From Spirochaetota bacterium (lineage in GTDB: Bacteria; Spirochaetota; UBA4802; JAFGDQ01): DNA of 31,744 bases. The stretch covers positions 1 through 31,744 of the forward strand of contig JAZDKB010000034.1 in assembly GCA_043803405.1 (NCBI GenBank). The letters run 5' to 3'. The notes under the pieces were generated by a model that ran no database searches, was not told the origin of the DNA, and saw only the letters and a list, made by a program, of their open reading frames with translations. The position numbers were made by a program, and so were the translations under genes. Position 1 is the stretch's first letter; every line of letters begins with the position of its first letter. Below, in pieces: positions 1-31,744 of this stretch.

Positions 1-132
1 TTTAATACGTTCTCACTTATCCTTCTATCCATAAAGGCTGCCTCCTTTGTTTTTTAACTTCGCAACTTAAAACTCTTAAAGAAGGTGGCCTTTATCCTTA
101 TTTTGTCAACTCACTACTAACATAGTAAACCC
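1..132 (-). mobile_element. Left end of a putative insertion sequence (reads outward, truncated by the contig end), including the first codons of a probable transposase (ATG at 32, MDRRISENVL...)
   Basis: 1-141 is the exact reverse complement of 31604-31744. It contains TTGACA, an RBS-sequestering hairpin, AGGAGG and an ATG opening a frame that runs off the edge. Family not determinable from 10 codons; inner boundary uncertain by a few nt. Confidence 0.65.
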
Positions 133-212
133 TCTCTGCTTCGCAAAGAGGGGGAATTGTGATATTTTTCTCCCCTTCTCTTTTTAAAGAGAAGGGGCCG
201 GGGGGATGAGTT
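130..212. repeat. REP-like double-hairpin intergenic repeat abutting the IS end
   Basis: Hairpins CCCTCTCTGC-TTC-GCAAAGAGGG (130-152) and CCCCTTCTCTTT-TT-AAAGAGAAGGGG (172-197), then GGGGGATGAGTT. A diverged inverted copy lies at 31494-31615. Confidence 0.8.
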
Positions 213-265
213 AAACAAGGTTTCTTCAGCGTGAGGCAGCCCTGCATGTACGCGGGAGGCGGAAA

Positions 266-307
266 CCGGTACAATAGTACCGGGGGCTTGCCCCGGGGAA
301 TTTTATT
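266..307. repeat. GC-rich palindromes CCGGTAC-aata-GTACCGG and GGGGCTTGCCCC (dispersed repeat, possible terminator role for the minus-strand operon)
   Basis: 283-307 GGGGCTTGCCCCGGGGAATTTTATT matches 27281-27305 at 24 of 25 positions. Confidence 0.6.
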
Positions 308-1487
308 TAATTATATTGTCCGCGGTAAGAAGAAGCCTGTTGCCTGATGGTATCGAATTCACCAGTACTCCTTCAAGAGTAACGATATCGCCGTTCTTAA
401 TATCTTTAAAATCCTTTTCGTAATATACGTCGATTATGCCTTTAAATATATCGTCCTTTTTGTAATCGATAAGCAGGTTAAACGTGCAGGACGTGTTCTT
501 CCTTTTAATATTCGCAATCTTGCCTTTCCATTTTATTGATGAATCTCTGTACAGGTAAGGTTTGCGGAAAACCTGGTCTGGAGGTATATCGCTGTAAGTT
601 TTATATTCTATGCCGGAAATAAATTTGCGCAGAAATTCGTTCTTTTCCTTAACTCTGTAATTCGCGTTACTGTTATCGATTTTATTTATGATCACGATTG
701 CATCGTTATTTTTTTCGTTCTTGATCAGATGTTTGGCTTTATTAAAATCGTTTATAATCTCATCGTTTGAATAGTAAAAAACAGGCGGCTTAACCTTCAG
801 TATTTTATCTACCAGGTCATACTGCAAAAGGGCAATGTCTATAGTATCAATAGGAAGCTGTTTTTTAGTTTCATGCTTAATCGGAACAGCTTTAAAAATA
901 TTGAAATAGTACAATGCCCCTCCTGCGGCAGCCAGCAGAAAAATGATCAGTATAATAATTATGATTTTTAAGAAATTAAACCTGCTTTTACTTACTTGTT
1001 TTTTTATTTTTTGATCCAGGGGTTTGCCGTAAAATGACTTAAAATTTTTTACAGTAAGATTCGGACCTGGGATATAAACATAATCTTTTAACCTTGCGTT
1101 TTTCTGGAAGATGGAGAAGTCTTTTTGTCCCCGCAGATCACGCAGCGCTCTGTTTAAATATTTATCATTAGGACAGCTGTTCAATTTGTCAATGTAAGCA
1201 GTAAGAACGGAATGCGTATCCGGGCCGGATTTAAGAATCAGGAAAGCTTCAAGGTGAATCAAAGGGAGATATTTCGCGTCAATAGCGCGGACTTTCCTGA
1301 TCATGGAATCGGCATCGCCGAACCTGTTCGAAAGCAGGTAGTTGACACATAGTAAAAAGTACGGGTAAGAATCTTTAGGACTAAATGATATTATTTTTTC
1401 CAGTATTGCAATTGACTCAGAAAATCTTTTTTTTCTGAAATCAATAAAAGCGTCCTTTATCAGGAGGTGCAATCCGGAATTAATCAT
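303..1487 (-). CDS. TPR-containing single-pass membrane protein with a probable C-terminal OB-fold-like domain
   Basis: 394-aa ORF. N-terminal TPR-like helices (FSESIAILEKIISFSPKDSYPYFLL), hydrophobic TM around aa 172-195, beta-rich C-terminus (IKWKGKIANI...NGDIVTLEGVL). Confidence 0.7.
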   Translation of the reverse strand: MINSGLHLLIKDAFIDFRKKRFSESIAILEKIISFSPKDSYPYFLLCVNYLLSNRFGDADSMIRKVRAIDAKYLPLIHLEAFLILKSGPDTHSVLTAYIDKLNSCPNDKYLNRALRDLRGQKDFSIFQKNARLKDYVYIPGPNLTVKNFKSFYGKPLDQKIKKQVSKSRFNFLKIIIIILIIFLLAAAGGALYYFNIFKAVPIKHETKKQLPIDTIDIALLQYDLVDKILKVKPPVFYYSNDEIINDFNKAKHLIKNEKNNDAIVIINKIDNSNANYRVKEKNEFLRKFISGIEYKTYSDIPPDQVFRKPYLYRDSSIKWKGKIANIKRKNTSCTFNLLIDYKKDDIFKGIIDVYYEKDFKDIKNGDIVTLEGVLVNSIPSGNRLLLTADNIIK

Positions 1488-1729
1488 TGTTTGAATTTTT
1501 TTATTACCTGATCTATTAACGAACCGTCTTTATCTTTGTTGCGGCCAAGCCAGTAACCGATTCCCATGAAAATCAGTAAAAGAAGTGTTTTGAATATACC
1601 GAGCGTAAAAAGCAGTATACCGAGTATAAGTCCTATAACAATCCCTATAGCTGTCGCAGGATTATTATTTATCCATTCTTTAATAAAAGGTATAATATTC
1701 TTATTAAACTTAAACTTTAACTCTCTCAA
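1484..1729 (-). CDS. DUF2273-like small integral membrane protein
   Basis: Two TM helices with the pattern GIVIGLILGILLFTLGIFKTLLLLIFMGIGYWLG. Overlaps both neighbours; TTG start uncertain. Confidence 0.75.
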   Translation of the reverse strand: MRELKFKFNKNIIPFIKEWINNNPATAIGIVIGLILGILLFTLGIFKTLLLLIFMGIGYWLGRNKDKDGSLIDQVIKKFKQ

Positions 1730-30204: not shown

Positions 30205-31440
30205 ATGGCATATCCTATATTAAAAGACTCAACGGATGCTTGCATGAAATGCGGTTTCTGCATGTCCAACTGCCCTGTGTACAATATCGACAAGCTGGAA
30301 GCGCATGTTGCGCGTGGCCGCAACATGCTTATACAGCTTGCTGAAAACAAAAAAATCGTTCCGGATAATTATTATAAATCCATTTTGTATTATTGTCTTT
30401 TGTGCGGCCGGTGCGAGGCAATGTGCCCTGCAAAGGTATTGTCCAATACTATAACCTTAAAGGCAAGGAAAGAGCTGATAAAGCAGACCGGGCTGTCGCT
30501 TATGCAGCGCCTTGTTTACAGGGGTTTGATAAAGCACCGTTCGTTCTTTGCGCGGCTGGGAGCTTTGGCGACGCTTGTTCCGGGACTGACTGCGAAAGAG
30601 AATCAGCCGATCCGTCATTTCCCGGATATTGTTTCAGCAGCACTGACCGGCGTATCCTTCCCAAGATTATCCGTACCGTTTTTGACGAAGCGTGTTAAAA
30701 AGAAAGCGAAGAGTGAAAGCGTGTGGCAGGCCGCAAAGATCGCGTTTTTCTCAGGCTGCCTTACCGAGTTCTTTTTCGCGAGTACAGGCACAGACATGAT
30801 TTCTATATTACAGCAGGCAGGGTACAACGTCGATCTTCCGGAGCAGACATGCTGCGGTCTTGCAGTGTACTCTGCAGGGGATTTCGATACTGCTGTTGTA
30901 ATGGCAAAACGCAACATTGATTCATTATCCGGATACGATTATATTGTCACTGGCTGCGCGAGTTGCAGTTCAACTTTGAAAGGCTACGTGAACTGGTTCG
31001 ATGAAGGAGAATATAAACAGAAGGCAGTTGAGCTTTCAAAGAAAGTGAAGGACTTTGCACAGTTTATTGTTCAGCAGGATATTAAACCGAAAGGCGTCTC
31101 GGGCAAACCATTAAAGGTTACGTATCATGATCCATGCCATCTTCGATGGAAGCAGGGCATACTTGCAGAGCCGAGGGCTGTGCTTAAAAATATTGACGGA
31201 GTCGAGTTTGTCGAGATGGAGGGCGCGGATTCGTGCTGCGGTCTTGGCGGATCGTTCGGGATTACGCACCCGGACGTTAGCAAAGCTATACAGGCAAAGA
31301 AAGTCGAAGCAATAAAAAAAAGCGGAGCGGACGTCGTTGTCACATCTTGCCCGGGCTGCATGATACAGCTAATGGACGGCCTGCGCCGCTATAAGCTGCC
31401 TGTAAAGGTAATGCATATAGCGGAACTGATGAAGAAGTAG
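30205..31440 (+). CDS. glcF: GlcF-like Fe-S subunit (2x[4Fe-4S] plus two CCG domains)
   Basis: CMKCGFCMSNCP, CLLCGRCEAMCP, FSGC, TCCG, CASC, YHDPCH, SCCG, SCPGC. Confidence 0.9.
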   Translation: MAYPILKDSTDACMKCGFCMSNCPVYNIDKLEAHVARGRNMLIQLAENKKIVPDNYYKSILYYCLLCGRCEAMCPAKVLSNTITLKARKELIKQTGLSLMQRLVYRGLIKHRSFFARLGALATLVPGLTAKENQPIRHFPDIVSAALTGVSFPRLSVPFLTKRVKKKAKSESVWQAAKIAFFSGCLTEFFFASTGTDMISILQQAGYNVDLPEQTCCGLAVYSAGDFDTAVVMAKRNIDSLSGYDYIVTGCASCSSTLKGYVNWFDEGEYKQKAVELSKKVKDFAQFIVQQDIKPKGVSGKPLKVTYHDPCHLRWKQGILAEPRAVLKNIDGVEFVEMEGADSCCGLGGSFGITHPDVSKAIQAKKVEAIKKSGADVVVTSCPGCMIQLMDGLRRYKLPVKVMHIAELMKK

Positions 31441-31493: not shown

Positions 31494-31615
31494 AACTCAT
31501 CCCCCATCCCCTTGCGCGGAGCCTCCCTTTGGGACTCTTTAAAAAGAGAAGGGGAGAAAAACATCCAATTCCCCGTGCAAAGCCTACCATGGGACTCTTT
31601 GCAAAGCAGAGAGGG
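31494..31615. repeat. REP-like double-hairpin repeat (inverted, diverged copy of 130-212) carrying two micro-insertions
   Basis: Aligns with the reverse complement of 130-212 once 31514-31534 and 31575-31594 are removed. Confidence 0.8.
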
Positions 31616-31744
31616 TTTACTATGTTAGTAGTGAGTTGACAAAATAAGGATAAAGGCCACCTTCTTTAAGAGTTTTAAGTTGCGAAGTTAAAAAACAAAG
31701 GAGGCAGCCTTTATGGATAGAAGGATAAGTGAGAACGTATTAAA
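31613..31744 (+). mobile_element. Left end of a putative insertion sequence with the start of a probable transposase (ATG 31713, MDRRISENVL...), truncated by the contig end
   Basis: Identical to the reverse complement of 1-132. TTGACA 31636-31641, AGGAGG 31699-31704, hairpin covering RBS and start. Confidence 0.65.

Follow-up and report, generated by a model that had tools for sequence, protein, structure and literature searches.

Contig Ends and Their Features

The window, i.e., the whole stretch of DNA analyzed here, is the entire 31,744-nt contig C34 of a Spirochaetota bacterium (JAZDKB010000034.1). The assembly (GCA_043803405.1) consists of 54 contigs with a total length of 3.98 Mb. An earlier note based on the letters alone had claimed that positions 1–141 equal the reverse complement of 31604–31744. 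We confirmed this identity and found that the match stops at exactly 141 nt; the junctions that the note had read at both ends are likewise borne out by the letters of the window. Since 50 of the 53 contig-end pairs listed for this assembly have 139–141 nt in common, the length of 141 nt reflects the assembler overlap and is no measure of the element. The identical stretch is made up of 129 nt of the left end of an insertion sequence (IS), a GG core and 10 nt of a REP-like repeat. The IS proper occupies positions 1–129 and 31616–31744, and the repeat begins at 132. The features of the window are as follows.

1–32, minus strand: initial 32 nt of the recombinase ORF, which runs off the contig (358 aa as read on contigs C18 and C45)
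33–129, minus strand: left non-coding end of the IS, 97 nt
113–125, minus strand: left sub-terminal inverted repeat, matching the right-end repeat with one extra base
124–119: −10-like hexamer of the predicted circle-junction promoter, inside the left sub-terminal inverted repeat
130–131, minus strand: GG core dinucleotide, common to target and IS end, as deduced from filled and empty sites in relatives
132–137, minus strand: putative left target half-site; 5/6 positions match the left target guide of the right-end RNA
132–211, minus strand: left part of an interrupted double-hairpin REP-like repeat
31496–31613, plus strand: left part of the other interrupted REP-like repeat, which has diverged and contains two inserted modules
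31608–31613: putative left target half-site, second copy
31614–31615, plus strand: GG core dinucleotide, second copy
31616–31712, plus strand: left non-coding end of the second IS copy
31620–31632: sub-terminal inverted repeat of the second IS copy
31713–31744, plus strand: start of the second copy's recombinase ORF, 32 nt

The two IS copies are inverted relative to each other, so that the enclosed 31.5-kb segment would be inverted by homologous recombination of one copy with the other; its orientation is not given by the assembly. Reading C34 as a composite transposon was ruled out, because both outermost ends would then be right ends. The enclosed segment also contains an ORF of 394 aa (303–1487) downstream of the elongation factor P gene, which has no Pfam match and is kept at 45–55% identity in four of the five relatives searched.

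Copies, Flanks, and the REP-like Repeat

The genome contains three left ends (two on C34, one on C18) and three right ends (on C45, C52, and C10). The earlier proposal of two recent hits by one element at one hairpin base therefore stands as to the element and the base of the repeat, and fails as to the number of copies, which is three. Recency is suggested by one observation, the near-identity of the ends: the left end on C18 is identical over 135 nt, and the right ends differ among themselves by 0–1 nt over 137 nt. When all junctions were collected, each of the three right flanks proved to be the G-rich 3′ arm of the REP-like repeat. Two of the three left flanks are the hairpin of this repeat, and the third, on C18, does not lie directly in a repeat. 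Copies of the repeat that contain no IS are present on C9, C3, and C30, and comparison with the filled sites suggests that the GG core is common to both.

The repeat is palindromic and dispersed. Its arm motif occurs at 40 genomic loci, including the three right flanks, compared with one or two in each of three locally shuffled genomes. The two loci of the window can be aligned inward of the junction as a hairpin repeat, as claimed previously, with substitutions and two insertions of ~20 nt. Only the left arm, as a double hairpin, folds better than its shuffles (z = −4.5, 0/200 shuffles as good); the right arm shows no such gain (z = −1.0, 37/200 as good). The repeat copies listed carry no terminal GTAG or CGTC tag, and the main text of PMC3733652 does not contain the tail motif of the repeat. 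An Rfam scan of seven loci returned one tRNA with an overlapping sub-threshold match, and nothing for the repeat or for the right-end RNA described below. As possible partners of the repeat we also weighed four DUF559 genes (on C53, C10, and C18; L075–L078), most of which are flanked by G/C-rich hairpin repeats that are related to this one and not identical with it. Two of these genes lie within ~4 kb of the right end on C10.

The third left end adjoins the right end of a second IS110 element (C18:291271-292768; L001:5272-6770) that is 28% identical to the first, is broken by one in-frame stop, and has 12-bp inverted repeats of its own. Because the third copy sits flush against this right end, two unrelated elements likely share a target, a few bases apart. 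Segments in the right end of the second element appear to match the same repeat arm. A hairpin of the repeat family lies upstream of this element on C18, and if C18 is paired with C10, removing both IS110 elements would leave a site that resembles the IS-free repeats of C3 and C30. Past the repeat arm at the C45 right end, by ~110 nt, lies a two-ORF element (L005:1200-2530), which by its motifs appears to resemble the IS3 family.

We considered the possibility that the assembly misleads, so that the real copies number fewer than three and the contig ends represent one collapsed repeat or a mixture of strains. The shared identity exactly equals the assembler overlap, and the recombinase ORF was assembled once only: it begins on C18, runs off this contig, and ends on C45. 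This join may itself mix copies. In one relative (G006), the orthologue of the window gene at 30205–31440 is followed directly by a gene that is found on C45, which suggests that the right end of the window continues into the C45 flank; for the left end of the window, no synteny link to C52 or C10 was found in four relatives. On the other hand, an artifact of this kind does not account for three left flanks and three right flanks that are all distinct, and a closed relative genome (G334, 61% identity) contains seven full copies, each inside its own repeat. We therefore consider this explanation very unlikely. Contigs of three public DNA runs, compared with window positions 1–1500 and with the right end on C45, extend over neither junction. 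A different collapsed multi-copy repeat, probably another IS, breaks the ends of C1, C21, C27, C29, C30, C32, and C36, and also those of C2, C3, C4, C15, C32, C33, and C43.

Recombinase and End Anatomy

The ORF of 358 residues is an IS110-family recombinase. A Pfam scan identified the RuvC-like domain PF01548 (38 bits, cutoff 29) and the Tnp domain PF02371 (88.8 bits, cutoff 21.3), and the NCBIfam IS110 model NF033542 scored 183 bits against a cutoff of 140. The ten best fold matches of an AlphaFold model with a mean pLDDT of 79 are recombinases of IS621 and ISCro4. From the short leader and an N-terminus (MDRRISENVL) that did not look like an IS110 start, the earlier note had drawn the suggestion of an IS256-like element and of a different targeting mechanism. 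The first is refuted and the second finds no support: the scan gave PF01548 and PF02371 only, with no IS256 or Mutator-type DDE domain, all three lines of evidence place the ORF in the IS110 family, and a non-coding guide complementary to the target accompanies it (see below). As in the IS1111 group, it is the right end that contains the guide RNA, and the leader is accordingly short. A search of a plasmid collection returned four distant matches at ~33% identity.

The non-coding ends measure 97 nt (left) and 230 nt (right), which corresponds to the long region downstream of the gene in IS1111-type elements. The two ends form a sub-terminal inverted repeat in which 12 bases pair and one extra base, on the left, is bulged out; similarly offset but shorter inverted repeats are found in four relatives. 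A short left end, a long right end, and sub-terminal inverted repeats are the anatomy described for the IS1111 group in the accessible parts of PMC11187229 and PMC11208160, and judged by sequence the end anatomy of this element is IS1111-type. The terminal extensions of IS1111 are 7 bp (left) and 3 bp (right); the corresponding values here shift with the chosen start of the repeat and with the side to which the GG is assigned.

Core Dinucleotide and Crossover Point

The closed genome G334 provides the clearest view of the core. Its seven copies lie in a palindromic repeat different from the one studied here, and all six empty-site rows listed (5/7 loci) have one GG common to the left and right flanks. 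A second relative (G044) yielded six pattern matches, of which four are repeat-like empty sites, two of them with the predicted G count. A GG core with no duplication beyond it is thus seen in G334, and for the present element we infer the same from the paralogous empty repeats on C9, C3, and C30. Under this definition the empty target would contain five consecutive G, the number present in the closest empty copy (C9). Joining the ends through GG places a −35-like hexamer of the right end at a spacing of 17 nt from the −10-like hexamer of the left end in four of five lineages; in the fifth (L022), the predicted spacing is 20 nt. IS621 has this junction-promoter arrangement according to the accessible text of PMC11208158. 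We also considered a donor junction with three Gs, which the donor loop of the RNA matches over 10 nt. The G334 empty sites disfavor it in 6/6 rows, and two of the four repeat-like empty sites in G044 as well as the 17-nt promoter spacing fit two Gs.

Predicted Guide RNA of the Right End

A segment of about 115 nt within the right end (C45:54407-54292) is conserved in G334, in G044, in a Chloroflexia metagenome-assembled genome (MAG), and in metagenome relatives. Over 11 distinct sequences this region supports an RNA scaffold of three helices with 16 pairs, in which 98.9% of the cells are paired (0/500 shuffles as high; slid controls ≤47%), and RNAalifold arrived independently at the same three helices. 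Two-sided changes occur in five pairs, a modest covariation because six of the 11 sequences come from one lineage. The variable columns of the RNA lie on both sides of the inner hairpin, with complementarity to the right flank of the insertion in the 5′ segment and a match to the left flank and GG in the 3′ segment. This order, top-strand match before bottom-strand match, is that of IS1111, for which the rule is given in the accessible part of PMC11187229. A second RNA unit has the same layout, matches both IS ends in 11/11 aligned sequences, and is nearly invariant. When the right end was folded as a single sequence (z = −2.85), the two target guides paired with one another, and this fold was left out of the loop model.

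The earlier note had recommended a look for a non-coding guide with complementarity to the target. The right end contains such a guide, and it covaries with the target over five lineages. Among all 120 permutations of guides and targets, the lineages' own pairing ranks first for the left guide (17.8, mean 10.1), for the right guide (36.7, mean 25.4), and for both together; the lineages are few (n = 5), and scoring of the right guide tolerated displacement by as much as 2 nt to either side in every comparison. For this element, the mean match is 5.0/6 on the left and 6.7/8 on the right. Weaker cases concern the left guide, which matches 2/6 positions in L022 and on average 3.3/6 in G334, below the 3.7 that the G334 guide reaches on the flanks of the present genome. 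Two of 13 left flanks of the Chloroflexia type (L025 and L027) are unlike the guide. Twenty-one genomic sites differ from the guide-encoded target at no more than three positions; the tail motif of the REP-like repeat was scored in only six of these, and eight further sites are copies of another G-rich hairpin repeat. The predicted guide is therefore not exclusive to the REP-like repeat.

Model for RNA-Guided Insertion

Comparison of sequences establishes the family, the ends, the repeat flanks, a conserved right-end RNA scaffold, guide segments that correspond to the target and change along with it, and, in relatives, the core. Taken together, both ends of the contig are very probably the left end of one IS110-family element with IS1111-type ends, which is present in three copies and which likely inserted by RNA guidance at GG in the 3′ arm of the REP-like repeat. 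By analogy to IS621 and ISEc11, the element would form a circle, the junction of which would join the −35-like hexamer of the right end to the −10-like hexamer of the left end and could drive production of recombinase and RNA. The recombinase would bind the guide RNA, the first loop of which would pair with the two target strands and the second loop with those of the junction. Strand exchange at the GG core would be serine-mediated and would leave no duplication beyond the core. How IS621 exits its donor site, by cut-out or copy-out, is not settled in the accessible part of bioRxiv 10.64898/2026.08.31.748434.

Alternatively, the recombinase protein may recognize the DNA hairpin itself, and the RNA matches may be incidental. 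The insertion point does lie within a hairpin arm, and there is precedent: the target choice of IS1397 and ISKpn1 is attributed to the protein in the available sections of PMC1525189. G-rich matches also arise easily, as off-diagonal right-guide scores of 5–6/8 indicate. What makes recognition by the protein highly improbable is that relatives at 61–68% identity combine the same scaffold with unrelated targets, to which their guides are altered accordingly (rank 1/120). That the REP-like sequence belongs to the element as a variable portion, as the inward alignment of the two window copies might suggest, or that the element is IS256-like, has a negligible chance, being refuted by the flank of the third copy, which diverges 4 nt beyond the core, by empty repeats without the IS, by relatives with the same ends and unrelated flanks, and by a Pfam scan that found no IS256 domain.

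Active Site and Relatives

Returning to the RNA-guided IS110 element, we examined its active site, which is predicted from alignment to comprise Glu20, Glu67, Asp105, Asp108, and Ser278. Position D11 of IS621 corresponds to Glu20, which is aligned to an Asp of the neighboring IS110 element. Of the best 120 among 1932 homologues, 107 have Glu and 13 have Asp at this first DEDD position; the 13 are scattered over six groups of a quick tree computed without support values. The residue that follows, T12 in IS621, is Asp in 120/120, and E67, D105, and D108 are equally invariant. S278 aligns with the catalytic Ser of IS621 and is Ser in 102 and Thr in 18 of these homologues. The seven near-identical copies in G334 carry Glu (one was translated), which suggests recent mobility with this residue. 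We found neither the term EEDD nor papers on this clade in the literature searched; most subscription papers lie outside it, and the result is no proof of the clade being unpublished. At least one representative is contained in Supplementary Table 1 of PMC11208160 (row 638), and as far as the accessible part of this source goes, its first strand is unaligned and the clade has no ISfinder member.

Relatives differ in the register of the right guide. By our own reading of the alignments, the register is the same in this element and G334, lies one base outward in G044 and L022, and one base inward in the Chloroflexia type. In the genome of the latter, three of four pattern matches are empty sites with a single G (control 0), and a metagenome copy of this type (L024) has an A at this position. 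Target and donor may therefore share one base or none in this lineage.

Several peculiarities of individual relatives were noted. The element of the Chloroflexia MAG (L008–L015, L047–L049) inserts at a short non-repeat motif that, when empty, has just one G in common with the donor core, and its right end is ~200 nt longer, with an extra palindromic segment. One copy has a direct duplication of ~60 nt at its left junction (L012:1290-1400). The L022 element (1380–1400; about 2890–2930) lies ~270 nt downstream of a match to a group II intron domain (RF01998, 44.3 bits). We take its insertion site to resemble an intron domain V–VI. The left junction of this copy seems to have three extra bases.

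These observations raise the speculative and, in our estimate, rather doubtful idea of a bridge-recombinase clade with a rebuilt active site (Glu-Asp for Asp-Thr at the first metal ligand) and an elastic target geometry, comprising three guide registers and, in one lineage, core sharing of one base or none. If true, the clade would escape the core-dinucleotide constraint that limits IS621-type tools. The clade constitutes a natural reprogramming series: one conserved scaffold is directed to three different repeats, to a position downstream of a group II intron domain, and to a short motif that is not a repeat. Its features, a GG core, an apparently mobile Glu-for-Asp active site, and one branch that may have no matched core, bear on how the crossover point is set and on the targeting range of genome-editing tools derived from bridge recombinases.

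Comparison with Known Systems

Guidance of an IS110-family element into REP repeats is a textbook phenomenon. It is well documented that IS110 elements with 2-bp cores target REPs (PMC1525189, PMC12288879, and PMC13604230), and the precedents IS621, ISPa11, and ISPpu10 named in the earlier note represent the same known mechanism. The mechanism is thus already known, and the value of the present case lies in the clade, which is apparently an uncharacterized variant.

Insertion in or near REPs is also found for IS1397 and ISKpn1 (IS3 family) and for ISRm5 (IS256 family), which have transposases of other families. A further parallel is provided by ISPpu9 and ISPpu10 of Pseudomonas putida, two IS110 elements on REPs in one genome with a 2-bp core (PMC1525189, accessible part). 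Similarly, the second, broken IS110 element described here appears to share the repeat arm of the first. In the accessible text of PMC12288879, ISPpu9 is described as having no junction promoter and no need of the downstream RNA Ssr9, whereas a junction promoter with 17-nt spacing is predicted here.

With the bridge recombinases of IS621 and ISCro4 (PDB 8WT6 and 9T56), the element shares a RuvC-like domain together with a Tnp domain, an aligned catalytic Ser, the two-loop logic of the RNA, a 2-nt core, the junction promoter (here predicted), and, in the case of IS621, a REP target. It differs from them in sequence (~21% identity), in the position of the RNA (right end instead of left), in the reversed order of the guides, in the core (GG instead of CT), and in the residues E20-D21, which are D11-T12 there.

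The element also resembles the IS1111 group with a right-end seekRNA or bridge RNA (ISEc11, ISPa11, and ISKpn4), which according to the accessible parts of PMC11187229 and PMC11208160 also has the long region downstream of the gene, sub-terminal inverted repeats, a top-strand match that comes first, and natural reprogramming among close relatives. One of its members, ISPa11, also targets REPs. The element described here departs from this group in that its target and the repeat containing it are new, its first DEDD residue is Glu with an invariant Asp directly after it, and its inverted repeats are offset by one base, an offset that is conserved.
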